Assembly: GCA_035711465.1 (NCBI GenBank)
Contig: DASTCC010000256.1
Coordinates: 1-55,401 of the forward strand
Source: Vicinamibacterales bacterium
Lineage (GTDB): Bacteria; Acidobacteriota; Vicinamibacteria; Vicinamibacterales; SCN-69-37
DNA length: 55,401 nucleotides
Direction: 5' to 3'
Position numbers and translations under genes: made by a program. Below, piece by piece: positions 2,799 through 32,146 of the stretch (the first letter of the stretch is position 1; every line of letters starts with the position of its first letter). The notes under the pieces were generated by a model. It did no database searches and was not told the origin of the DNA. It saw only the letters and a list, made by a program, of their open reading frames with translations.

Positions 2799-3986
2799 AT
2801 GTCAGTTTCGAGACGGGCATTCATGGCGGCGGGCATCGGCGCCGGAGCAGTCGGCGCCGGCTATTACCTCACGGGCGGCAGGATCCTCGGCCCGTGGACC
2901 CGCGACGCCGGCGAGAAGGTCGCCGGTGCAGCACCGACGCGGCGTCTGCTGCTGCACAACAACGAGAACCCCCTCGGGCCGGGTGACAAGGCGATCGCGG
3001 CGATGAGAGCGAAGTTCACCGAGCGGGGCATCCCGCTCGCGCGCTACGGCTTCAGGTCGGGCGAGGTCGCCGAACCGCTGGCGGCCAAGTTCAGCTGCAA
3101 GACCGAGAACGTCATGCTCGGCTGCGGCTCGACGCAGATCCTGCGCAGCGCGACCCACGCGTTCACGACGAAGGACGCGGCGCTGATCACCGGCACGCCG
3201 AGCTACGAAGAGTGCCCGGACATGGCCAAGGTCGTCGGCTCGAAGATGGTCACGGTGCCGCTCACCGGATCGGCGCATCTCGACCTCGACGCGATGGCCG
3301 CGGCCTCCGCCGGCGCCGGTCTCGTGTTCCTCTGCAATCCCAACAACCCGACCGCCACGGTGCACGGCGCCAAGACGGTGCAGGACTTCGTCGAGAAAGT
3401 GCTGAAGGCGTCGCCGAAGACCGTGATCGCCATCGACGAGGCGTATCACGACTACGTCACCGACCCGAGCTACGCGACGCAGATCCCGCTCGCGCTCGAG
3501 AACCCGCAGGTCATCGTCGCCCGCACCTTCTCGAAGGCCTACGGCATGGCCGGTCTGCGGCTCGGCTACGCCATCGGCAGGAAGGAGACGCTCGACAAGA
3601 TGCGCGCCGTCCAGTTCGGCATGACGCTGAACGTGCTCGCGCTTGCCGCCGCGGTCGCGTCGATCCCGGACACGGCGCGTCTCGAAGAGGAGAGCCGCCG
3701 CAACACCGAGGCGCGCCAGTTCACCATGGACTGGTTCAAGCGCTCGGGCTATTCGATGACCGATTCGCAGTGCAACTTCATCTTCGTGAACATCGGCCGT
3801 CCGGCGAAGGAATTCCGCGACGGCTGCCGCGAGCACGGCGTGCTCGTCGGCCGCGACTTCCCGCCGTTCGAGAAGACCCACACGCGCATCTCGATCGGCA
3901 CGATGGAAGAGATGAAGGAAGCCGTGCAGGTCTTCGGGCAGGTCCTCGCCGTGACCAACGCGGCGTCGACGGGCACCGCGGCCTGA
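2799..3986 (+). CDS. HisC-family class I/II PLP aminotransferase with canonical Tat-type signal (paralog of 1536..2753)
   Basis: ORF 395 aa. MSVSRRAFMAAGIGAGAVGAGYYL = SRRxF plus a hydrophobic h-region. Same conserved blocks (NENPLGP, LCNPNNPTAT, IDEAYHDYVTDPSYAT, TFSKAYGMAGLRLGY, HTRISIGTMEEM). Confidence 0.85.
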   Translation: MSVSRRAFMAAGIGAGAVGAGYYLTGGRILGPWTRDAGEKVAGAAPTRRLLLHNNENPLGPGDKAIAAMRAKFTERGIPLARYGFRSGEVAEPLAAKFSCKTENVMLGCGSTQILRSATHAFTTKDAALITGTPSYEECPDMAKVVGSKMVTVPLTGSAHLDLDAMAAASAGAGLVFLCNPNNPTATVHGAKTVQDFVEKVLKASPKTVIAIDEAYHDYVTDPSYATQIPLALENPQVIVARTFSKAYGMAGLRLGYAIGRKETLDKMRAVQFGMTLNVLALAAAVASIPDTARLEEESRRNTEARQFTMDWFKRSGYSMTDSQCNFIFVNIGRPAKEFRDGCREHGVLVGRDFPPFEKTHTRISIGTMEEMKEAVQVFGQVLAVTNAASTGTAA

Positions 3987-20266: not shown

Positions 20267-20358
20267 TGTCGTCACCCGTGTCACCCGTCGTGACCCGTCG
20301 TAACCCGCCCGTCACCTGTCGTAACCCGTCGTCACCCGTCGTAACCCGTCGTTACCCG
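20267..20358 (-). repeat. About nine imperfect tandem copies of 10-nt unit GGGT[TGAC]ACGAC (minus-strand reading)
   Basis: Plus strand reads ...TGTCGTCACCCGTGTCACCCGTCGTGACCCGTCGTAACCCGCCCGTCACCTGTCGTAACCCGTCGTCACCCGTCGTAACCCGTCGTTACCCG. The last unit contains the TAA stop (20352..20354) of the YfcH-like gene. Confidence 0.85.
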
Positions 20359-21278
20359 TAAATCGCTGTGAGCGCTGAGTCGAGGTCCGTGTAGCGGAAC
20401 ACGAATCCTTGTTTGCGTGCGCGTTCGGGGACGACGCGTTGGCCCTGGAGCAGGGCGACGGTTGCCATCTCGCCGACGAGGATGCGGAGCGCGAAGCCCG
20501 GTACGGCGAGCCAGCTCGGGCGGTGCAGCACCCGGCCGAGCGCCGAGGCCATTTCCACGCCGGTGACGGGCTCCGGCGCGGTGGCGTTCAAGGGGCCAGA
20601 GATCGCCGAGTTCTCGATGGCCCAGTCGAGGAGCGCGATCCAGTCGTCGCGGTGGATCCACGAGATCGTCTGCGCGCCGCTGCCGAGCGGGCCGCCGACG
20701 AAGAACTTGAACGGCCGCGCCATCTGCTGCAGCGCGCCGCCGTCAGCGGCGAGCGCTATGCCGCTGCGCAGGATGACGAGCCGCGATCCGAGCGCCGTCA
20801 GCGGATGTGCTTCCGCTTCCCAGGCGACGCACATCCGACCGAGGAAATCGTCGCCGGGCGGAAACGACTCGTCGAAGGTGTGATTCGGATTGGTGCCGTA
20901 GTAGCCGATCGCCGACCCTTGCACGAACACGGCCGGCGGTGTGGTGGCGGCGCGCGCGGCGGCTACGAGGTTGCGCGTCGCCAGCGTGCGGCTTCTCAGC
21001 ATCTCGCGCTTGTACTGCGCCGACCAGCGGCGATCGGCGAGGCCGGCGCCGGCGAGATTGATCACGGCGTCGGCGCCATCGATCTCGCGAGCCCAGGCGT
21101 CGAGCCGCGCCGGGTCGGGCGTCTCGACCGGCGACCATGCGACGTCGCGCGCCAGGGGCGAGCTCGACGCCGCCCGCGGCTTGCGCGTCAGGACGACGAC
21201 CTGGAACTGTCGATCGGTGAAGTGCTCGACGAGCGGCTTGCCGAGGAACCCCGTGCCGCCGGCGATGACGAGCTTCAT
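20352..21278 (-). CDS. TIGR01777/YfcH-like NAD-dependent epimerase-family SDR with C-terminal DUF1731
   Basis: MKLVIAGGTGFLGKPLVEHF Rossmann start, about 300 aa, C-terminal GFVFRYTDLDSAL block typical of the SDR39U1/YfcH family. Confidence 0.8.
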   Translation of the reverse strand: MKLVIAGGTGFLGKPLVEHFTDRQFQVVVLTRKPRAASSSPLARDVAWSPVETPDPARLDAWAREIDGADAVINLAGAGLADRRWSAQYKREMLRSRTLATRNLVAAARAATTPPAVFVQGSAIGYYGTNPNHTFDESFPPGDDFLGRMCVAWEAEAHPLTALGSRLVILRSGIALAADGGALQQMARPFKFFVGGPLGSGAQTISWIHRDDWIALLDWAIENSAISGPLNATAPEPVTGVEMASALGRVLHRPSWLAVPGFALRILVGEMATVALLQGQRVVPERARKQGFVFRYTDLDSALTAIYG

Positions 21279-21297: not shown

Positions 21298-21369
21298 CCG
21301 GAGGCACGCGATCGTACCAGTGCCTCCGGCCCTCGCCGTACCAGTGCGGCGCGCTGACGGCGCCGTCAG
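21298..21369 (-). terminator. Two consecutive hairpins after the DUF4097 gene pair
   Basis: 20-nt perfect palindrome CGCTGACGGCGCCGTCAGCG (21350..21369, overlapping stop 21366), plus CCGGAGGCAC-12 nt-GTGCCTCCGG (21298..21329). CGTACCAGTGC occurs twice (21313, 21337). Confidence 0.45.
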
Positions 21370-22127
21370 CGATCGATCCGGACGTTCCCGGAGAAGGTGT
21401 GGAACCGGAGCGTGCGGCCGGCGCCGCCGGGCAGATCGCCCTCGGTCCGCGACCGCCGGACGCTGCGGATCTTCATCGGCAGCGCGGTGTCGAACGATCC
21501 GCTGAAGCTGTCGAACTGCACGCTGCCTTGGGCGTTCTCCGCGAGGCGGACGCGGATGTCGCCGCTGAAGGTCTCGGCGCGGATGTCGGGTGAGGCGCCG
21601 GCGGCGATGGCGTTGATCTCGATCGTCGAGCTGAACGACTCGGCGTCGATCGCGCCCCTGGCGTCGGACACGATCACGTCGCCCGAAAACGACTTGATCC
21701 GCTGACTGCCGGTGACGCCCGAGACGGTGACGTCGCTGCCGAAGACGTTGACGTCGAGCTTCGCCGCCGCCGGGACCTGAATCTCGAAGTCGGTCTCGAC
21801 GACGTTCTCGTCGCGCTCGCGCCATTCCCGCTGCCGATCGTTGGCGTTGACGACGACGCGCGAGCCGGTGGTCTCGATGGTGAGCTTGATGTTCTCGAGT
21901 CGATCGCGGCGGGCGCGCCGGACGGCGTGGATGACGACGTCCTTGCCGCTGGTGCCGGTGATGCGGACCTTGCCCGAGAAGTTCTTGAGCTCGAGCGTGC
22001 CGTTCTCCGGCAGCGGCACGGTGCGATCGACGGTCTCGGTCTGCTGCTGCGCGTGCAGACCGGCGCCGAGCAGGGCGACGATCGCCGCGGCAGCGAGCGT
22101 GCGAAGGATGGGGGACTGGGCCTTCAT
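21366..22127 (-). CDS. DUF4097-family beta-strand-repeat secreted protein
   Basis: Signal peptide. Reiterated F-S-G-[DSK]-[VI] strands (NFSGKVRITG, SFSGDVIVSD, TFSGDIRVRL, SFSGSFDT, TFSGNVRIDR). Confidence 0.7.
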   Translation of the reverse strand: MKAQSPILRTLAAAAIVALLGAGLHAQQQTETVDRTVPLPENGTLELKNFSGKVRITGTSGKDVVIHAVRRARRDRLENIKLTIETTGSRVVVNANDRQREWRERDENVVETDFEIQVPAAAKLDVNVFGSDVTVSGVTGSQRIKSFSGDVIVSDARGAIDAESFSSTIEINAIAAGASPDIRAETFSGDIRVRLAENAQGSVQFDSFSGSFDTALPMKIRSVRRSRTEGDLPGGAGRTLRFHTFSGNVRIDR

Positions 22128-22151
22128 TGAATCCTGTGCTCCTGATAGTCG

Positions 22152-22979
22152 CTAGCGCCGGCCGATGCGGACGCTGCCGTTCGACGAGCTGACGCGGATC
22201 GTCGGGCCGCCGCTGCCGAGCGTGGTCTCGAGCTGCCGCGAGATCCGGCCCTGGACGGTGATCGGCATGTCGACGGAGAGGTGGCCGTTGCTGGTGCCGG
22301 CGATCAACCGCGCGTTGTACTTCTCGGGCACGTCGACGCGCACCGAGCCGTTGGAAGTGCGCAGCTCGAGGCCGGCGCCGCTCCACGTCGATCCGCCGAG
22401 CGCCGCGTGCACCGATCCGTTGCTCGTCGTCGCGATGACGTCGCCGCCGACGTCGACCAGGCTCAGGCTGCCGTTGCTGCTCTCGGCGCGGATGCGGCCG
22501 TTGACCCCGGAAATCGACACCGACCCATTCGACGTGCCGAGCTCGAGGTCCTGAGACGCCGGCACTTCGATGCGGTAGCTGACCCACCAGCTGCGCCGGT
22601 TGCCGGACGTGCTCGGCCCATCAGCGCGAACGCGGCCGTTCTCGGCGGTCACCTTCACGTCACGTCCGAGCGCGGCCGCGTCGCTCTCGGTGCGATCGGT
22701 GGCGACGACGCGGGCGCGGATCGCGATGTCCTTCCGGTTGGTGGCGGTGATGCTGATGCTGCCGTTCGGGTTGTCGGTGACGTCGAGCACGCCGGGCTTG
22801 GCCATCGTCAGCTCGCGGACCTCGCAGAACACCTCGCGGTCGCGGTCACGATCGTCGCGCGCGTCCGCACACCAGTCCTGATTGGACGAGGTCGACCGGC
22901 TGGTCTGGCCGGCAAGGGTCGCCGGCGCGGTGGCCGCGCAGGCGAACAACAGGATGAAAAGACTGCGAAACACCTGCAT
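22152..22979 (-). CDS. DUF4097-family beta-strand-repeat secreted protein (tandem paralog)
   Basis: Signal peptide MQVFRSLFILLFACAATAPA. Reiterated SNGS[VL] strands (TSNGSVSISG, SSNGSLSLVD, TSNGSVHAAL, TSNGSVRVDV, TSNGHLSVDM, SSNGSVRIGR). Confidence 0.7.
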   Translation of the reverse strand: MQVFRSLFILLFACAATAPATLAGQTSRSTSSNQDWCADARDDRDRDREVFCEVRELTMAKPGVLDVTDNPNGSISITATNRKDIAIRARVVATDRTESDAAALGRDVKVTAENGRVRADGPSTSGNRRSWWVSYRIEVPASQDLELGTSNGSVSISGVNGRIRAESSNGSLSLVDVGGDVIATTSNGSVHAALGGSTWSGAGLELRTSNGSVRVDVPEKYNARLIAGTSNGHLSVDMPITVQGRISRQLETTLGSGGPTIRVSSSNGSVRIGRR

Positions 22980-23025: not shown

Positions 23026-23757
23026 TTAGACGGAGGCGCCGCCGGGCCCGTTGCCGGTTCGCGTCCGGGCCGTCAGGGCCGCACCGGGGTCGAGCAATCC
23101 TGTGTAGATGGCCATGCCGACGACCGCGTCGACACCGATGTCGTCGAGCCGATGCACTTCGTCGAGCGAGCGGATGCCACCCGCCGCGATGACGGCCTTC
23201 GTCGTCGCGGCGCGGACGGCCAGGACCGCTTCCATGTCGACGCCCGACAACAGGCCTTCCGTGTCGACGTGCGTGTAGAGGAACGCGCCGGCAAACGAGG
23301 ACAGCGCGCGGACCGCGTCGGCCGGCGTGGTTCGAGTGACGCCGCGCCAGCCGTGCGTGACGACGCGGCCGCGGCGCGCGTCGACGGCCGCGACGAAGGC
23401 CTGCTCGCCAAGGGCGTCCGCAAACGCCTGCGCGCGCGCCACATCGGGCGCGCCATCCGTGTACAGCGCCGATCCAATCACCACGCGACACGCGCCGAGC
23501 GCGATCAACGCCTCCGCGCGCTCGATGGTCCGCACGCCGCCGCCGACCTGGCAGGGCAGGGTCCGACAGATCTCGGAGACGAGCGGCGCGTTGTCGCCGT
23601 GTCCCTTCGCCGCATCCAAATCGACTAGCTGAACGACGGGAAAGCCGCGAAAGCGATCGATCCAGCCCTCGAGATCGTCGCTCGCGACGCGCAGGCGTTC
23701 GCCCTGCTCGAGCTGGACGATGCGTCCGTCCATCAGATCAATCGACGGAATCAGCAT
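23026..23757 (-). CDS. hisA: ProFAR isomerase (HisA)
   Basis: Start ATG 23757: [19 protein letters not shown]..., [35 protein letters not shown] = HisA (beta/alpha)8 signature. 20-nt overlap with hisF. Confidence 0.85.
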
Positions 23758-24514
23758 CGTCGAGCCGTATGGGCACGCCGCGGTCGGCAAGAAAACGTTT
23801 GAGGTCGCGCACGCCGTAGTCCTCGAAATGCAGGATCGAGGCGGCGAGAGCTGCGTCGGCGCAGCCGTCGAGGAAGACGTCGACGAAATGGCCGGGCCGG
23901 CCGGCGCCGCCCGAGGCGATGACAGGCACGGGCACCGCGCCACTGACCGCACGGGTGAGATCGCAGTCGAATCCCGACTGCGTGCCATCGCGATCGATCG
24001 ACGTCAGCAGGATCTCGCCAGCGCCATGACCGACCGCCTCGCGGGCCCAGGCGACCGCGTCGCGCGGGTCCGGGCTCGAGCCGCTTCGGCTCCGCACCTC
24101 GAAGCGGTCGCCGCGCGCGATGGCGTCGATAGCGACGACGACGGCCTGACTGCCGAAGAGGCTGGCGATCTCGGCGATCAGCGCCGGGCGCGCCAGCGCC
24201 GCCGAGTTGATGCTGACCTTGTCCGCGCCGGCGTCGACCAGCGCCCGCGCATCGTCGATGCTGCGGACGCCGCCGCCGACGGTCAACGGCACGAAGACGC
24301 GATCGGCGACGGCGCGAACCGTGTCGGCGATCGCGCGGCGGCCTTCGAGCGTCGCCGAGACGTCGAGCACGACGATCTCGTCGGCGCCCTCTGCATCGTA
24401 CCGGGCGGCAAGCGCCGCCGGATCGCCGGCCGTGCGCAGATCGGCGAACTTGACGCCTTTGACCACGCGGCCGTCGCGCACGTCGAGGCAGGCGATGACG
24501 CGCCGCGTCAGCAT
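23738..24514 (-). CDS. hisF: Imidazole glycerol phosphate synthase cyclase subunit (HisF)
   Basis: Start ATG 24514: [30 protein letters not shown]...[13 protein letters not shown]...[11 protein letters not shown]...[11 protein letters not shown]...IASGGAG. Confidence 0.9.
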
Positions 24515-25125
24515 CGCCGGCTCGCGCGCGCGATGGCGACAAAAGTGGCGAGGAGGCGAAGGCCGACCGCGCCCGATTTCTCGGGATGACCTTGCACGCC
24601 GAAGACGTTGGCCCGCTCGACCGCGGACGCGAAGACGCTGCCGTGACTGGTCGTGGCAGTGGTGATCGGTGAGGGCGGCGCGGCGAACGTGTGTGAGAAG
24701 TACATGGCGGCGCCATCCGGAACGCCGTCGAGCAGACGCGAGGCGCAGCCAGTGCGGTCGAGCTGATTCCAGCCGACGTGAGGCACCTTGACGTTCCCCG
24801 CGATCCGCTGGGATCGGCCGGCGAAGAAACCCAGACCGTGGTCGTTCGTCGCTTCGTCGCTGCCGTCGAACAGCCACTGCAGGCCCAGGCAGATGCCCAA
24901 CAGCGGCGTGCCGTCGTCGATGGCCGTCGCGATCGCGGCGCGCCACCGATCGTCGAGCGCGCGCGTCGCCGCGAAGTGGCCCACGCCGGGGATGATGATC
25001 GCGTCGGCGCCAGAAAGGGCAGTGGGCCCGATCGCGCGGAGCGGCGCCGCGTCCACAGCCGCGAGCGCCTTCATGACCGACTGCACGTTGCCGGCCCCGT
25101 AATCGACGACGGCGATGCGGGTCAC
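24508..25125 (-). CDS. hisH: Imidazole glycerol phosphate synthase glutamine amidotransferase subunit (HisH)
   Basis: [17 protein letters not shown]..., [17 protein letters not shown] (Cys nucleophile), [12 protein letters not shown] 25125 chosen because it forms a GTGA overlap with the hisB stop. The track ORF extends to 25179. Confidence 0.85.
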
Positions 25126-25709
25126 AGGAGCTCCTTCGTCGAGGGCAGCACGCGGAGCAGGCGTCGATCCTTCGCGCACGCGACGCGAAGCGCGCGGGCG
25201 AACGCCTTGAAGATCGCCTCGATGCCGTGATGGCTCGACCGGCCATACAGCAGCTTCAGGTGCACGTTGGCCCTGGCGCCGGTGGCGAAGCCTTCGAAGA
25301 AGTCGGCGACCAGCTCGGTGGGCAGGTCACCGACGCGTGAGGCCCGCACCGGCACGTCGATGGCGGCGTGAGGACGGCCGGCCAGGTCGATGGCGGCGAC
25401 AGCGAGTGACTCGTCCATCGGCATCACGAAGTAGCCGGCGCGGTTGATCCCGCGGCGCGTGCCGAGCGCGCGCGCGAACGCGTCGCCGAGCGCCAGCCCC
25501 GTGTCCTCGACGGTGTGATGAGCGTCGACGTCGAGGTCGCCGTCCGCGGCGATCTCGAGATCGAAGCCGCCATGACGGGCGGTCGTCTCGAGCATGTGAT
25601 CGAGAAACCGGAGGCCGGTCGCGATGTCATAGCGTCCGCGTCCTTCGACCTGCAGCCGGACGCGGACGCGCGTCTCGGCCGTGCGGCGGTCAATTCGCGC
25701 CCGCCGCAC
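25122..25709 (-). CDS. hisB: Imidazoleglycerol-phosphate dehydratase (monofunctional HisB)
   Basis: 195 aa. [50 protein letters not shown] motifs. No N-terminal histidinol-phosphatase domain. Confidence 0.9.
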
Positions 25710-26739
25710 GGATCGCCTCCAGCGCGTCGATGCAGACGCGCGTGTGCGCCACGACGCCGGCGGTGATGCGCAGACAGCCGGCGCACCCGGACGCGGCGCT
25801 CTTGTCGCGGACGAGCACGCCGCGATCGGCGAGCGCGCGCGCCAGCGCCGACGCCGTGTCGCCGACGCGAATCAGCACGAAGTTCGCTTCGCTCGGCCAG
25901 TAGGTCCACCCGCGGCGCTCGCAGTAGTCGTAGAGCAGCCGCTTCGACTCCGCAGCCGCGGCCACCGATGCGCGCAGATATGCCGTGTCCTCGAGCGCGG
26001 CAGCGAGGGCGCGCATCGCGCAGACGTTGACGCCGAAGGGTGGCAGCAGACGCCGCAGCGGCGCCAACGTCTCGGGGTGCGCGACCAGCGCGCCAATGCG
26101 CAGCGCGGCCAGCCCGTGCGCCTTCGCGAACGTCCGCCCGACGACGAGGTTGCGATGGCGATCGAGCGTGTCGCCGACGAACGTCCGGCCGCTGAACTCC
26201 GCGTAGGCTTCGTCGACCAGCACGGTCGCCTGTGGCGCCGCCTGCGCGATGTGCTCGACGATGCCTCGCGGGATCGCGAGACCCGTCGGGTTGTTCGGAT
26301 CGGTCAGATAGACCAGCCGGGTGGCGGGCCTCAACGCGTGCATCATCGCCTGCGTCGGAAACGCGAAATCCTCTTCCGGCATCAGATGCGTCGTCGCCAG
26401 GCCCGCGGCCTCGGCGCTGGCCAGGTACATCTCGAACGCCGGCTCGACGATGATCACGGGCGGCTCGACGGGCACGCGATCGATCTGCAGCCTGGCGTAA
26501 TGCGCGACGACGTGCAGGCCTTCGTCGAGGCCGTTGGTGAGTTGGACCCAGTCCGGATCGACGCCGAACGCGGCTGCCGTGGCCGCCGTGATCGGACCGT
26601 AGTCCGGATACCACGCGGCTTCCTCACGGGTGATCGATCGCAGCGCCTCGAGCACGGCCGGCGAGCAGCCGCCGGTGTGCTCGTTGAAGTGAAGGCGAAG
26701 GCCCTGGGACGCATCAGGTGGTTGATATGGCATGGGCAC
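25690..26739 (-). CDS. hisC: Histidinol-phosphate aminotransferase (HisC)
   Basis: 349 aa. [37 protein letters not shown] (PLP Lys). No signal sequence. Lies between hisD and hisB. Confidence 0.9.
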
Positions 26740-26763
26740 AGGGCTCCGGAAGGGCAGCTGACA

Positions 26764-26805
26764 ACTTGAAACTTAGAACTCAAGACTTGAAACTCAGAAC
26801 TCAGG
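26764..26805 (-). repeat. Two tandem 21-nt AT-rich units spanning the hisD stop
   Basis: Plus strand ACTTGAAACTTAGAACTCAAG (26764..26784) and ACTTGAAACTCAGAACTCAGG (26785..26805). On the sense strand each unit reads GAG TTC TGA/TAA in the hisD frame. Confidence 0.85.
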
Positions 26806-28041
26806 TCGAAGGCGGATCGCGATCGATTCGGCATGGGCTTCGAGTCCCTCCGCTTTCGCGAGCGCAATCGCTGCCGGTCCGATCGCGCGCAGGCCGCGTT
26901 CGCCGATCGTCTGGACGGTGAAGGTTCTCACGAAGTCCGAGGTGCTCAAGCCGCCGCGCGTTCGGGCGGCGCCGCCGGTTGGCAGGACGTGATTCGAGCC
27001 GGTGGCGTAGTCGCCGGCGGCCTGCGCGCTCCAGCGGCCCCTGAAGATCGTGCCCGCGGTCGTGAACTGATCCGGATCGAATGGCGCATCGCAAACCAGA
27101 TGCTCCGGTGCCAGACGGTTGACGATCTCGACGGCTTCGCCGCGGGTTCGCGCGATGACGATGGCGCCGTGCTTCGCCAGCGACGCACGGGCCGGTCCCG
27201 CCGCGAGCCTCATGGCGCCGATGGCTGACGAGACGCCGGCGGCGAGGCGCGATGATGTCGTCACGAACACGGCGCGCGCCTGGGGATCGTGTTCGGCCTG
27301 AGCGACGAGATCGATCGCGATCCAGTCTGCCCGTCCGCGATTGGCGCAGACGACGATCTCGCTGGGCCCGGCGGGCAGATCGATGGCGCAGTCGCTTGCG
27401 ACCAGCGCCTTCGCGGCTGTCACCCAGACGTTGCCAGGTCCGGCGATCTTGTCGACCCTGGCGATCGACGTCGTCCCGTAGGCGAGCGCCGCGATCGCCT
27501 GCGCGCCGCCGATGCGAAGCACGCGCGACACGCCGGCCTCGACGGCCGCGCAGAGCACCTCCGGCGCCGGACGCGGACAGGCGACGACGATGTCGCCGAC
27601 ACCGGCAACGGCCGCGGGAACTGCCGTCATCAACACCGTTGACGGCAGCGGATGCCGGCCGCCAGGCACGTAGCAGCCGACCCGGCCGAATGGCCGGACG
27701 CGCTGCTCGATGCGGACGCCGTCGGCGGTGTCGACGGCAAAGCTGCGCGGCAGCTGACGTTCGGCGACCGTGCGAACGGCACGCGCCGCCTTCCGAATCG
27801 CGCGTCGGACCTCTGGCGACGTTCGACGCCAGCCCTCGTCCATCGCTCGCCGCGTGACGTCGAATGGCGGCTTGACGTCGTCGAGCTCTCGCATCCATCG
27901 CGTCAGCGCGCGGTCGCCGCGGCGCCGGACGTCGGCGACGATCCGCGCGGCTTTCAAAGCGACTTCGCGGTCGCGGGCGCGGTCGCGCGCGAACAGCCGC
28001 TCCAGCGCCCGCCGGTTGGTCGTTCGGACGATGCGCATCAC
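26794..28041 (-). CDS. hisD: Histidinol dehydrogenase (HisD)
   Basis: 415 aa. [49 protein letters not shown] motifs. The GTG 28041 / ATG 28038 starts overlap the hisG stop. Confidence 0.9.
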
Positions 28042-28925
28042 AGCACGACCTTGTTGAGCGGGTACTCGACGATGCCCTGGGCGCCGGCGTGCTTGAGCCG
28101 CGGGATCAGATCGCGCACGGTCCGCTCGTCGACGATGGTGTTGACGGCGACCCAGCCGGCGTCGCCGAGCGGCGACACCGTCGGCCGCTTCAGTGCCGGC
28201 AGGAGCGCGAGCACGCTGCCAAGGCCGACCCTATCGACGTTCAGCATCAGTCCGACGCGCCCGTGCGCCTCGATCGCCGCCTGCAGCAAGAGCGCGAGAC
28301 TGTCGATCTTGGCGCGCTTCCACGGATCCCGGACGGCGGCCGGATTGGCGATCAGCTGCGTGCTCGATTCGAGGACGGTATCGATGATGCGCAGCCGATT
28401 GGCGCGCAGCGATGATCCGGTTTCGGTGACCTCGACGATCGCGTCCGCGAGCACCGGCGGCTTTACTTCGGTCGCGCCCCAGGAGAATTCGACGCTGACC
28501 GGAATCCGTCGCGCGGCGAAGTACGCCTCGGTGGCGCGCACGAGCTCGGTGGCGACGGTCCGGCCCGCCAGGTCCTCAGGCCGCTGCCACGGCGAGTCAT
28601 CCGGCACCGCGAGCACCCAGCGCACGCGACCGTAACTCTGCTTGGCGTAGACGAGATCGGCGACGGGCTCGACTCCAGAGACGCCGTCGTTGGCGGCGGC
28701 GTGCTCGGCGATCCAGTCCTGACCCGTGAGGCCCGCGTCGAGGACGCCGTCGGCGACGTAGCGGGTCATCTCCTGCGCCCGGATCAGCATGCATTCGATC
28801 TCGGGATCGTCGATGCCGGGGTAATACGAACGCGAGCTGGCGAACACGGTGAACCCGGCGCGCGCGAAGAGCTGAACCGTCGCGTCCTGCAGCGATCCCT
28901 TGGGCAGCCCGAGTTTGAGCTTCAT
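28038..28925 (-). CDS. hisG: ATP phosphoribosyltransferase, long form (HisG)
   Basis: Start ATG 28925: [25 protein letters not shown]..., [15 protein letters not shown]. About 295 aa, which implies a C-terminal regulatory domain. ATGA overlap with hisI. Confidence 0.9.
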
Positions 28926-29236
28926 AGCGCCGCCCGCCCGTCGAAGCAGGTGACCGTGCCGTTGTGGCAGGCGAGGCCGTCGCCTTCGCGCCGCACCCGG
29001 ACCAGCACGGTGTCCTCGTCGCAATCGGGCGTGATCGACACCACGGCGAGCCGGTTGCCCGAGGTCTCGCCTTTGGTCCAGAGGCGATCGCGCGACCGTG
29101 AGTAGAACGTCGCGTAGCCGCTGGCACGCGTGACTGCCAGCGCTTCGGCGTTCATGAAGCCGACCATCAGGACGAGGTTGCAGTCCGCGTCCTGGATGAC
29201 GGCGGGGATGAGCCCGTTCAGCTTCGAGAAGTCCAT
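28922..29236 (-). CDS. hisI: Phosphoribosyl-AMP cyclohydrolase (monofunctional HisI)
   Basis: 104 aa. [49 protein letters not shown] = HisI zinc/cyclohydrolase motifs. No HisE extension. Confidence 0.9.
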
Positions 29237-29271
29237 GTCCGTCCTTCGCCCGGACGGGATCGAGCAGGGTA

Positions 29272-29300
29272 CAAACGAAAACCCCGCCGATCCGGCGGGG
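29272..29300 (-). terminator. Intrinsic terminator of the his attenuator
   Basis: Minus strand CCCCGCCG-GAU-CGGCGGGG (29300..29282) followed directly by UUUUCGUUUG (29281..29272). Lies 36 nt upstream of the hisI ATG. Confidence 0.7.
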
Positions 29301-29333
29301 CTGCGAAAGTCGATCAGAGTTCGACGACGACGT

Positions 29334-29402
29334 TCAGGCGCAGCGCCACCGGGCGGTCGAATGACCGTGATGATGGTGGCGGTGGTGCGCGCGCGGGAAC
29401 AT
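29334..29402 (-). CDS. his operon leader peptide, 22 aa, 7 His codons
   Basis: Own translation of the minus strand: ATG TTC CCG CGC GCG CAC CAC CGC CAC CAT CAT CAC GGT CAT TCG ACC GCC CGG TGG CGC TGC GCC TGA = MFPRAHHRHHHHGHSTARWRCA. Too short for the ORF track. Confidence 0.7.
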   Translation of the reverse strand: MFPRAHHRHHHHGHSTARWRCA

Positions 29403-29412
29403 CAGGACAACG

Positions 29413-29442
29413 ACGTTACGCAACCACGTCGTCGAGTGTCAA
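29413..29442 (-). promoter_or_regulatory. Candidate his promoter
   Basis: Minus strand TTGACA (29442..29437), 18-nt spacer, TAACGT (29418..29413), 10 nt before the leader ATG. No SD, which implies a very short or absent 5' UTR. Confidence 0.4.
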
Positions 29443-29464
29443 GTCCGCGTATCGCGCCGACGAC

Positions 29465-32146
29465 TCACTCCGCAGCACGAAGCGCGTCTGTAGGGTGGAT
29501 CCGCAGCGCCCTGCGAATCGGTACCGTGCAGGCCACGGCGCTGACGATCATCACCATGATCGCGCTTGCGGCGATGAGACTGGCGAGCGACAGCGTGATG
29601 TGACCCTCGGAAAGCAGCGGCAGCATCGTGATGGCAGCGGCGCCAATCACGGCGCCGATCGCGACCCGCCGCATCGGTGTTCGCAGGATCTCCGACAGCA
29701 GCCGGCGCCGGTCCGCACCGAGCGCGACGCGGATGCCGATCTCCCGCGTGCGCCGCGAGACCGTGAACGACACGACGGCGTAGATGCCGGTCAGCGCCAG
29801 CAGCAGCAGCAAGCCGATGACCCCGAGAGAGAAGCGGAACCAGAACGCATAGAAGCGTGATTCGGTCCGGACGAGATCGCCAAGGGTCGAGAAGCCGGAG
29901 AGCCGCAGCGACGGATCGACGCGCGCGGCAATCGCGCGCACTCTGGCGGCGATCGTCCCGCTCCCTCCGGCCGCGTGCACGATCAGCCGGGCCGGCTGCG
30001 TCCCGGGCACGAGCGGCGTGTAGATGCCGGCGCGCTCGCGCAGACCGGGATCGGCGGTCATCGTCAGATCGGTGACGACGCCGACGATCTCTCGCCATGG
30101 CTCCGGCGCTTGTTCGTCAGACGTCGACGGCGTCGAGGCTTTGAATCGCAGTCGTCGCCCGATTGCCGGTGCGCCGCCCAGCACCTCGGCTACGAACGAC
30201 TGGTTGACGACGATGACTGTGGCGTCGGGGCGCGTCTCGGCCGGGTGAAAGTCGCGTCCCGCCACCATCTTCGCGCCGAGTACCTGAAAAAAGCCGGGAG
30301 ATACCGTTGCCACCTGCGGTCGATGCCCGAGCGCCAGACGCGACGGCTGCGTAGGGCCGTCGACTTCGATCCACCGTCGGGGAACGTAGGCGCCTGGCGG
30401 ATCGCCGAACGTCGCCGATCGAATGGCGCCATCGACGCGGAGCTCCTCGAGCAGCGTCGCGCTCGACGATTCGAACCGTCCGCGGTTGGCGGCCGTCGCG
30501 TCGTCGGGAGTCGATGCGCCCGCGGCTGTCGCGCCGTGCAGCGCGACAGCCGCGGCCACGTACTCGTCGCCAGCCGCGCCGAGATCGAAGCGCGAGAATC
30601 CCCAGGTCTCCCGGCCAACGGAGACGACGATCGGCACGCACGCGACGGTGAGCGCGACCTGAGCGACGATGACGCCGGTCCAGATGCCGCCGAAACGCAC
30701 GGTGGATACGCCCGGCGCGCCGATCTTCCAGCGCGCCGCCCCGCCCGTCACGCGGAACGCCGGCCATGCGCCGGCGACCAGTGCGACCAGGCCCGCCAGT
30801 CCAACCGCATAGACCGCGGTCCACGGCGACAAGCTCATGTGCATCCAGAACGGCCACCGCTCGATGCCGAGGCCGACCTCGACGAGACGAAAGACCCAAC
30901 GCATCCCAACGGAGGCCAGGCCCAGGCCCGCCGCGGCGCAGACCAGCGCCAGCAGCATCGTCTCGACGAACAGCTGACTGACGATGCGTCCGCGGCTGGC
31001 GCCGAGCGCGGTGCGCATCGCGAGCTCCGCCTCGCGGCTCACAGTCCGCGCGAACATCAGCAGCGCCACGTTCGATGCCACGAACACCAGGAACAGCACC
31101 GCGGCGACATTGGTCGAACCGAACGCCAGTCGCGCGACGACGGGCGCGTCGATCATCGCCCTCGCGTACGGCAGCACGGTCGGCACCACACGCGCATGGG
31201 TGTCGGGGAAGTCGCGTGCCGTCCGCGCGCCGAGCGCCGTAACCTCGGCCTGCGCGCTCGCCAGCGTCGCGCCAGAGGCCAGACGACCGAACACGAAACC
31301 TGACGGAGGCCCGCCACGCCGGCCCAGTTCGGACGCAGTGAATCGAAGCGGCACCCACGCGTCGTGCGCGACCGGAAACAGGAATCCCTCCGGCATCACG
31401 CCGACGATGGTCACCGGCCGCGCATCCAGGTACGCGGTGCGGCCGATCACGTCCACGGCGCCGCCGAAGCGCTGCTGCCAGACGTGGAAGCCGATCACCG
31501 CGACGTCCGGTCCGCCGACGACCTCGTCGGAGGCGACGAGCGTGCGTCCGATGCGCGCCGAAGCCTGCACCGTGGCGAATGCGGCGGCGCTCGTCTCCGC
31601 CACTTCGATCGGCTCGCTTTGCTGGTCGGCGGTGATCAGATTGCGCGTCTGCGATCGAAAGGCGCCAACGTGCTCGACCGATCGCAGCTGCGTCCGCCAC
31701 GTCTCCAGATCCCAGGCGGTGTGCGTCACGTTACGGCCGGTCTCGGTGTTCCAGAGCCGGAATCCGACGATCCGGTCGCCGCCGGCGATCGGCAGCGACG
31801 GCGACAGCACCTGTGAGACCACTTCGAACGTCAGCGCGCCAACGGCGATGGCGAATCCGAGCGCCAGGCTGGCAACGAGCGACAGGCCCGGATAACGAAG
31901 CATCAGCCGCATGCCGAGCCGAACGTCGAGCCACGACAGTTGCAGCCGAGGACGCGGCAAGCGCAAGCGCGCGAGCGCGAACGCCATGTCCAACCCCTCG
32001 ACCGTCGTCAGCCACCACGCAGCGAGGCGTCCCCGCTGCTGGACGCGGCGGCCGTGCGCCTCTTCGAGATCGCCGAGGACGTCGTGAACCCGGTCACGAG
32101 GCGCGAGCCCGCTGAGCAGGGCGGCAATCAGGCGAGGCGGCTTCAT
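29465..32146 (-). CDS. ADOP-family duplicated FtsX/MacB-type permease with N-terminal permease-prefix domain
   Basis: 893 aa. Two MacB_PCD+FtsX halves. C-terminal ...RRALRIHPTDALRAAE. N-terminal cytoplasmic prefix (DVLGDLEEAH). ATGA overlap with the padR stop. Confidence 0.9.
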   Translation of the reverse strand: MKPPRLIAALLSGLAPRDRVHDVLGDLEEAHGRRVQQRGRLAAWWLTTVEGLDMAFALARLRLPRPRLQLSWLDVRLGMRLMLRYPGLSLVASLALGFAIAVGALTFEVVSQVLSPSLPIAGGDRIVGFRLWNTETGRNVTHTAWDLETWRTQLRSVEHVGAFRSQTRNLITADQQSEPIEVAETSAAAFATVQASARIGRTLVASDEVVGGPDVAVIGFHVWQQRFGGAVDVIGRTAYLDARPVTIVGVMPEGFLFPVAHDAWVPLRFTASELGRRGGPPSGFVFGRLASGATLASAQAEVTALGARTARDFPDTHARVVPTVLPYARAMIDAPVVARLAFGSTNVAAVLFLVFVASNVALLMFARTVSREAELAMRTALGASRGRIVSQLFVETMLLALVCAAAGLGLASVGMRWVFRLVEVGLGIERWPFWMHMSLSPWTAVYAVGLAGLVALVAGAWPAFRVTGGAARWKIGAPGVSTVRFGGIWTGVIVAQVALTVACVPIVVSVGRETWGFSRFDLGAAGDEYVAAAVALHGATAAGASTPDDATAANRGRFESSSATLLEELRVDGAIRSATFGDPPGAYVPRRWIEVDGPTQPSRLALGHRPQVATVSPGFFQVLGAKMVAGRDFHPAETRPDATVIVVNQSFVAEVLGGAPAIGRRLRFKASTPSTSDEQAPEPWREIVGVVTDLTMTADPGLRERAGIYTPLVPGTQPARLIVHAAGGSGTIAARVRAIAARVDPSLRLSGFSTLGDLVRTESRFYAFWFRFSLGVIGLLLLLALTGIYAVVSFTVSRRTREIGIRVALGADRRRLLSEILRTPMRRVAIGAVIGAAAITMLPLLSEGHITLSLASLIAASAIMVMIVSAVACTVPIRRALRIHPTDALRAAE

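Follow-up and report, generated by a model that had tools for sequence, protein, structure and literature searches.

In the trp-type model of transcription attenuation, segment 1 of the leader RNA lies over the regulatory codons of a short open reading frame (ORF), the stop codon of this ORF stands beside segment 2, and segment 3 is either taken up in a 2:3 antiterminator or paired with segment 4 in a 3:4 terminator. The his leader of Salmonella is 16 codons long, contains 7 consecutive His codons and folds through six segments (A:B, C:D and E:F versus B:C and D:E; PMC4046918). Attenuators with His-codon leaders have also been predicted by comparative genomics in Firmicutes (hisZ/hisS of the B. 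cereus group, Peptostreptococcaceae and Erysipelotrichales), where the Rfam model RF00514 (His_leader) misses them (PMC9413887; PMC2965389), and the leaderless poly-Cys small ORFs (sORFs) of mycobacteria are proven cysteine sensors that act on translation (bioRxiv 10.1101/834739). As for Acidobacteria, a 2010 survey was able to assign a function to almost none of the attenuators predicted there (PMC2965389). Here we describe the region upstream of the histidine biosynthesis operon hisIGDCBHFA in a 55,401-nt contig of a Vicinamibacterales bacterium (DASTCC010000256.1; the whole of this stretch is referred to as the window). We read this region, with a probability of about 0.88, as a ribosome-mediated leader-peptide transcription attenuator that senses charged tRNA-His and sets the expression of the operon. 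The elements that make up the predicted switch are as follows.

29334..29402, minus strand: leader ORF of 22 codons plus UGA, MFPRAHHRHHHHGHSTARWRCA, from the ORF list and by direct reading
29361..29387, minus strand: regulatory His codons (codons 6-14; 7 His, as 4 CAC and 3 CAT), by direct reading
29380..29403, minus strand: segment 1 (anti-antiterminator strand), overlapping codons 1-8, from the minimum-energy fold of the free leader
29339..29352, minus strand: segment 2, CCGGUGGCGCUGCG, within the last leader codons and ending 3 nt before the UGA, able to pair with segment 1 or 3
29309..29328, minus strand: small hairpin in the spacer from leader stop to segment 3, from predicted folds
29292..29305, minus strand: segment 3, CGCAGCCCCGCCGG, the terminator 5' arm plus 3 nt upstream of the stem, from folding
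29280..29302, minus strand: intrinsic terminator stem-loop (3:4) of 10 pairs, AGCCCCGCCGGATCGGCGGGGTT followed by TTCGTTTGTA, from a terminator scan
29270..29279, minus strand: U-rich terminator tail, UUCGUUUGUA, with UU inside the stem before it, by reading and terminator scan

The leader ORF reads ATG TTC CCG CGC GCG CAC CAC CGC CAC CAT CAT CAC GGT CAT TCG ACC GCC CGG TGG CGC TGC GCC TGA. A preliminary description of this DNA, made from the letters alone, was therefore right in placing a His-rich leader with 7 His within 9 codons at 29402..29334, and this run proved to be the sole 9-codon stretch with at least five His in the six frames of the 55.4-kb window. Located 33 nt past the leader UGA is CCCCGCCG-GAU-CGGCGGGG, followed by UUUUCGUUUG, which the same description had named an intrinsic terminator. 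Both direct reading and the terminator scan confirmed this assignment, and the stem-loop at 29302..29280 was the sole terminator-like site in the scanned kilobase. When the 186-nt leader was folded and compared with dinucleotide shuffles, a z value of -3.67 was obtained and 0 of 200 shuffles folded as well.

The free leader folded at -61.6 kcal/mol into a 1:2 helix (29403..29380 with 29351..29329) and the terminator. The antiterminator (2:3) joins 29352..29339 to 29305..29292 through 13 pairs, one of them G-U, interrupted by a single C-C mismatch; its energy is -23.3 kcal/mol alone, versus -19.2 kcal/mol for the terminator alone. A pairing of segment 2 with the terminator arm had been noted by eye as seven pairs; the pairing exists but is longer, as it also recruits the CGCAG just 5' of the terminator stem. 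All three pairings (1:2, 2:3 and 3:4) were found in the window folds, and the leader stop codon, 3 nt from segment 2, stands where a ribosome could cover this segment, both as had been anticipated. The locus thereby has the marks of the mechanistic class, namely an ORF with a run of the cognate codon, an intrinsic terminator, an antiterminator that uses the terminator 5' arm and a stop codon placed at segment 2. Together with the modelled switch described below, these bear out at the level of sequence the His attenuator that had been put forward.

Related loci were collected by a HisI-based scan of one genome per species (80 loci) and by a metagenome scan (80 more loci). In the genome scan the nearest HisI relatives belonged to Vicinamibacterales metagenome-assembled genomes (MAGs), at 70-72% identity; a taxonomy look-up places Vicinamibacterales in Acidobacteriota, the origin that had been guessed from the flanking genes. 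The metagenome scan returned no HisI above 72% identity to that of the window, and fine-scale covariation in the window's own lineage was thus unobtainable. A His-rich ORF (at least 4 His in 9 codons) was present within 450-500 nt upstream of hisI at 51 of the 80 genome loci, all but one of them labelled as Acidobacteriota of Vicinamibacteria or Terriglobia type, and at none of the Bacteroidota, Alphaproteobacteria or Gammaproteobacteria loci of the HisI scan. The odd locus, L021, is labelled Verrucomicrobiia, but both its leader (MTSLSHRHHHHHVAHVSAEVYT) and its terminator are typical of the Terriglobia type, and the contig is probably an acidobacterial one binned in error. Among metagenome loci whose ORF was complete and whose upstream sequence was long enough, the His-rich ORF was found at 70/70, with a terminator as well at 69/70.

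Once duplicates and weak cases had been dropped, 113 non-redundant loci from two Acidobacteriota classes made up the working set, so that the conserved His-rich ORF and terminator looked for upstream of hisI in relatives were indeed present. The leader had a median length of 23 codons (20-34) with the frame open in all 113, and its stop lay a median of 2 nt from the end of segment 2. The U-tract started a median of 60 nt (43-79) past the leader stop, the terminator had a median energy of -22.8 kcal/mol, and the distance from U-tract to hisI ranged from 9 to 206 nt. A profile hidden Markov model built from Terriglobia-like leaders alone matched the window leader end to end (29403..29274, E = 0.004) as well as 17 other Vicinamibacteria-like leaders; the two clades therefore share one recognisable element. 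Searches by nhmmer with both profiles gave no further copy in the rest of the window and, in the sequence flanking related loci, only the displaced leader of locus L006. At this locus an 89-nt unit repeated 8.7 times in tandem (95% matches; L006:3195-3976) stands between the attenuator terminator and hisI (4001), and the insertion has pushed the leader (~3010-3150) some 860 nt upstream. Two other relatives depart from the common layout. L011 (3700-4000) has a leader, MFRLRHAHLHHAHGHSTGRWSSA, very close to that of the window and a hairpin, CCCCGCCGG-TTC-TGGCGGG, without a U-tract, which may mean that the terminator has decayed or that control now works in another way. In L017 (3740-4000), from an Acidobacteriaceae MAG, hisI is preceded by a TTGACA promoter and GC-rich hairpins with no His-rich ORF, and the leader there may use a different regulatory principle.

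Comparison with enterobacterial hisL (RF00514) showed a common plan, in which a short ORF with a His run is followed by an intrinsic terminator. As in hisL, stalling at the His codons would favour an alternative fold that keeps the terminator from forming, and untranslated RNA, which terminates by default in the enteric leader, may do so here. The details differ. The window leader folds as four segments rather than six (plus small non-switching hairpins), the acidobacterial His run contains Arg, Gly or Val codons between its His codons, and the ORF is longer (20-34 codons), with segment 2 inside its 3' end. The acidobacterial leader also lacks a Shine-Dalgarno sequence, its promoter abuts the start codon, and the first gene of the operon is hisI instead of hisG. 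No homology to RF00514 could be detected: the model gave no match in 29100..29600 at E<=10 and none at E<=1 in 20 related loci, a miss that had been expected, and no Rfam family reached its gathering score within the window. Topology and logic (1:2, 2:3, 3:4) are those of E. coli trpL, but the regulatory codons are His and not Trp, the sequence family is unrelated and translation probably starts on a leaderless message. The Firmicutes systems are likewise lineage-specific His-codon peptides with terminator and antiterminator that RF00514 misses; they have 3-5 His in a row, occur in some lineages only and are likened here by layout, not by sequence, whereas the acidobacterial element was found at essentially every locus sampled from two classes. 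With the mycobacterial poly-Cys sORFs the window leader shares an unannotated sORF at the 5' end of the operon transcript and a predicted stalled ribosome that would remodel the downstream RNA, but the target here would be an intrinsic terminator, and leaderlessness is judged from promoter spacing alone.

Constraint on the element was analysed in two alignments, of 62 Terriglobia-like and 41 Vicinamibacteria-like sequences. In the former, positions 1-2 of the four central His codons were conserved at 89-100% and position 3 at 53-71%, varying almost only between C and T, which indicates selection on codon identity. The four codons of segment 2 behaved differently, with third positions conserved at 87-98%, and selection here is therefore on nucleotides and not on amino acids; the conserved peptide tails (…NVSAE…, …GRPAGLRA and …ARWRCA) are accordingly an RNA constraint read through the genetic code. 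Terminator pairing was possible in 95.7% and 89.9% of cells in the two alignments, compared with 30-56% when the partner strand was slid; 8 and 30 cells had changes on both sides of the pair, and the covariation score was reached by 0/500 shuffles. The antiterminator was pairable in 93.4% of cells of the Terriglobia-like alignment versus 25-59% slid, and its covariation was reached by 1/500 shuffles. Its one often-variable pair was G-U in 44 sequences, G-C in 10 and A-U in 8, and never A-C. By eye, a flanking pentamer follows the same rule: segment 3 GCAGC occurs with segment 2 GCTGC, and GCAAC with GTTGC.

Pairing of segments 2 and 3 was also specific to the locus, the energy being -19.5 kcal/mol with the locus's own segment 3 and -17.95 kcal/mol with segment 3 of other loci, a difference matched in 0/2000 permutations. 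Segment 2 was defined for this purpose relative to the main His run, as a definition by the last His failed where a His stands near the C-terminus. The observed 2:3 energy was reached by 5% or fewer of the dinucleotide shuffles at 48 of the 113 loci, where about 6 such loci would be expected (binomial p = 3e-32).

The effect of ribosome position was modelled by masking a footprint that reached 15 nt upstream and 12 nt downstream of the first nucleotide in the ribosomal A site and refolding the remaining RNA. For the full-length window leader, an A site at His codons 6-10 gave the 2:3 pairing and no terminator, and a ribosome at the UGA gave the terminator. Equilibrium folding of the complete leader was nevertheless rejected as a proxy for the co-transcriptional decision, as it gave antitermination at 32/111 loci only. 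It was replaced by a model in which transcripts are cut just behind the terminator 5' arm and the question is whether this arm is already paired upstream. In the cut window transcript the arm was 90% paired with the A site at codons 1-12, 20% from codon 13 onwards and 22% in free RNA, the drop at codon 13 coinciding with the end of the HHHH block. Across the family, the arm was sequestered (at least 70% paired) at 71-75% of loci with the A site on the first six positions of the run, and this share was 10-15% nine or more codons later, 28% at the stop and 29% in free RNA; in free cut RNA, in other words, the arm was less than 70% paired at 71% of loci. By clade, the arm was sequestered at 79% of His-run positions in Vicinamibacteria-like and 59% in Terriglobia-like leaders, and at 19% and 11%, respectively, when the ribosome stood more than three codons past the run. 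The modelled positions thus switch the fold of cut transcripts, in the window and in the family, in the way that an attenuator calls for.

Several observations weigh against the attenuator interpretation. The equilibrium result for the full-length window leader shifts with the assumed 5' end, and in most relatives the terminator stays the minimum-energy structure despite a ribosome on a His codon; this is to be expected if the decision falls during transcription, and the switch would then need to be kinetic (co-transcriptional), like that of known attenuators. A modelled ribosome placed anywhere before the run also frees segment 2, and by itself the model does not point to the His codons in particular. 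The same holds for classical attenuators, in which a ribosome upstream of the regulatory run likewise frees segment 2, and His is the signal by virtue of where ribosomes can be made to dwell. In the clade of the window, the antiterminator was paired in only 70.8% of cells in a fixed register (20-47% slid), a lower bound depressed by one-nucleotide register shifts such as GCAGCCCC versus GCAGACCCC. Support for the antiterminator consists mainly of conservation and G-U-tolerant change, with double compensatory changes at 2 pairs in the Terriglobia-like alignment. Helix 1:2 is moderately supported across the family, with 70.6% of cells pairing in Terriglobia-like relatives versus 40-52% slid and no significant covariation, and the shuffle controls leave phylogenetic relatedness in.

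On this basis we infer the following course of events. Transcription would start at or a few nt upstream of the leader AUG, a position suggested by promoter spacing, and a ribosome would translate the 22-codon ORF while RNA polymerase proceeds. With ample His-tRNA, the ribosome would reach the UGA and cover segment 2 (29352..29339), leaving segment 3 free to form the 3:4 terminator (29302..29280 plus the U-tract), and transcription would end before hisI. With scarce His-tRNA, it would stall in codons 6-12, covering segment 1 and exposing segment 2, which could then pair with segment 3 as the latter emerges; no terminator would form and the polymerase would read into hisI. An RNA without a ribosome would adopt the 1:2 helix and the terminator, a predicted default-off state.

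The proposed start of the leader message depends on its promoter, for which two boxes were read.

29437..29442, minus strand: -35 box TTGACA, read in the sequence
29413..29418, minus strand: -10 box TAACGT, at an 18-nt spacer from TTGACA and 10 nt before the leader ATG

The TTGACA-N18-TAACGT promoter at 10 nt from the leader ATG had been described previously and agreed base for base. A consensus promoter scanner does not report the TAACGT box, because this hexamer matches TATAAT at 3/6 positions. In 90/112 related loci the leader is preceded by a comparable promoter (TTGACA-like with at most 1 mismatch, a 17-18 nt spacer and TAnnnT), and in 85 of these 90 the -10 hexamer ends 6-11 nt from the leader start codon; the loci outside the 90 mostly have a TTGC-type -35 box with TAGGCT or TAGCCT at an equal distance. 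As bacterial transcription usually starts about 7 nt past the -10 hexamer, a 5' untranslated region of 0 to about 5 nt is to be expected for the leader mRNA. A Shine-Dalgarno-like 4-mer precedes 16/113 leader starts, compared with 49/113 hisI starts. The spacing and the lack of a Shine-Dalgarno sequence suggest that the leader mini-gene is probably leaderless, which is plausible because leaderless genes have been predicted at 9.7-19.4% in three Acidobacteria genomes (PMC3160421). An alternative TTG start at 29423, which would give a 29-aa leader, was rejected as it lies upstream of the -10 box.

One more element of the leader region enters into the choice between explanations.

29239..29257, minus strand: local hairpin CCGTCC-GGGCGAA-GGACGG over the hisI ribosome-binding region, -12 kcal/mol

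Because this hairpin, which the preliminary description had placed over the hisI Shine-Dalgarno sequence, is indeed present at 29257..29239, the stalled ribosome might instead control translation of hisI, or access of Rho, by opening the ribosome-binding site buried there, in the style of the mycobacterial poly-Cys leaders. We consider this improbable. Such a mechanism is documented for the mycobacterial leaderless sORFs (bioRxiv 10.1101/834739), the hairpin in the window reaches -12 kcal/mol over the Shine-Dalgarno region, and relative L011 keeps leader and hairpin without a U-tract. However, a comparable hisI-proximal hairpin exists in only 13/104 relatives, and the hairpin was for this reason rejected as a part of the mechanism; a GC-rich hairpin with a U-tract at fixed distance, by comparison, is found at the great majority of leader loci, including all 113. 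Furthermore, the distance from U-tract to hisI is variable, and the conserved alternative pairing aims at the terminator arm and not at the hisI ribosome-binding site. Still less probable is that the CAY run is left untranslated and serves as the site of a histidine-activated RNA-binding protein choosing between terminator and antiterminator. Repeated triplets beside a terminator/antiterminator pair are a hallmark of the TRAP and HutP systems too, but here the run is preceded by an in-frame ATG (at least 90% conserved in the Terriglobia-like alignment) whose distance from the -10 box is fixed at 6-11 nt, the ORF is uninterrupted at 113/113 loci within a narrow range of lengths and stops at the edge of segment 2, and variation at the third positions of the His codons is almost entirely between C and T. 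Nor is there a linked gene that is a candidate for such a regulator; the neighbours of the locus are padR-ADOP and LiaG-like genes.

Two explanations would dispense with a switch altogether. His-rich peptides can bind metals, and the length of the leader peptide is conserved, as would suit a functional micropeptide (metal-binding, for example) that is merely co-transcribed, with the hairpin as the ordinary terminator of a small gene or of the upstream ADOP gene. We give very little credence to this possibility, as residues outside the His run are explained by the nucleotide constraint on segment 2, the element is always found directly in front of hisI regardless of which gene lies on its other side, the 3' end of the ORF is itself the pairing partner of the terminator arm, and the leader peptides match no Pfam or NCBIfam family. 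Chance, finally, could be invoked for a GC-rich intergenic region with CAC/CAT repeats and a hairpin, given that GC-rich RNA folds stably, that G-rich and C-rich segments pair easily and that shuffles of single loci reach the observed 2:3 energy fairly often (a median of 7.5% of shuffles). It is the least credible of these explanations and is already refuted by conservation: the His run has no second example in six frames of 55 kb, the element recurs at 113 loci across two classes, and the end-to-end match of the Terriglobia-like profile to the window leader adds to this. The attenuator remains the preferred explanation.

Searches for the element in existing collections returned little. The leader peptides of the window and three relatives had no Pfam or NCBIfam match at E<=10, and none of ten leader peptides, that of the window included, is recorded as a called protein (exact copies) in a collection of 15 billion sequences. 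Being absent from Rfam, Pfam, NCBIfam and called proteins, the element is missed by current annotation pipelines. We found no paper on a his attenuator in Acidobacteria or Acidobacteriota, with an earlier mention in Lopatovskaya et al. 2010 (PMID 20198868) being possible. The proposed mechanism is classical, and the sequence family is phylum-wide without an entry in libraries or the searchable literature. The broader proposal, that this is an Acidobacteriota his attenuator family independent of the proteobacterial one with its sensory ORF on a leaderless or near-leaderless mRNA, stands in our view at even odds. If true, this attenuator would be the first in Acidobacteriota to have its signal assigned. 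Its first ribosome would bind the 5' end of the emerging transcript unaided by a Shine-Dalgarno sequence and be coupled to the polymerase over only ~130 nt, and the leader would offer a compact natural system for the coupling of RNA polymerase to a 70S-initiated pioneer ribosome.

Acidobacteriota rank among the most abundant bacteria in soil and, to our knowledge, almost nothing is known about their gene regulation. The leader provides a concrete, testable candidate device for the regulation of a core biosynthetic operon, conserved in both classes sampled, and would add one more case, apparently of separate origin, in which histidine synthesis is controlled through a leader peptide; the spacing between its promoter and start codon suggests that the sensing ribosome loads independently of a Shine-Dalgarno sequence. 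The 113-sequence set is sufficient to seed a new RNA family model.

Codon choice within the leaders was also uneven. Over the 113 loci, 50% of leader His codons were CAT (393 CAT, 387 CAC), compared with a CAT share of 25% in the adjacent hisI genes and 27% in the genes of the window (Fisher p = 6e-9). In an assay with the Salmonella his leader, NNU codons were read more slowly than NNC codons for most such pairs (PMC4046918). The bias may possibly reflect a preference for the synonym that is read more slowly, which would sharpen the sensor.

Downstream of the leader, the operon begins with the following gene.

28922..29236, minus strand: hisI, encoding a monofunctional phosphoribosyl-AMP cyclohydrolase (Pfam PRA-CH, 8e-30), the first gene of the operon

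The operon occupies 23026-29236 of the minus strand in the order hisI-G-D-C-B-H-F-A, as compared with hisGDCBHAFI in enteric bacteria. Gene identities and order agreed with those given in the preliminary description: NCBIfam supports hisI, hisG, hisF and hisA, and Pfam supports hisD, hisC, hisB and hisH. By the same Pfam/NCBIfam identification, hisE was not found within the his operon of the window, and HisI is monofunctional. Upstream of the leader lies a gene for a double FtsX/MacB permease (ADOP), preceded by padR. The GTG start of padR (window 32490, minus strand) lies 6 nt past a promoter made of TTGACG, a 17-18 nt spacer and TATAGT. This was the sole other match in the window to the signature of a promoter plus start codon, and the padR-ADOP operon looks leaderless by this spacing. 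Directly after hisA are two adjacent paralogous ORFs of 275 and 253 aa (window 21366-22979, minus strand) with weak C-terminal matches to the LiaG family. ARAGORN reported a 91-nt tRNA-Val(gac) at 20689-20779 on the minus strand, which is probably a false positive; it falls inside an ORF for a TIGR01777-family oxidoreductase (20352..21278, E = 5e-97).

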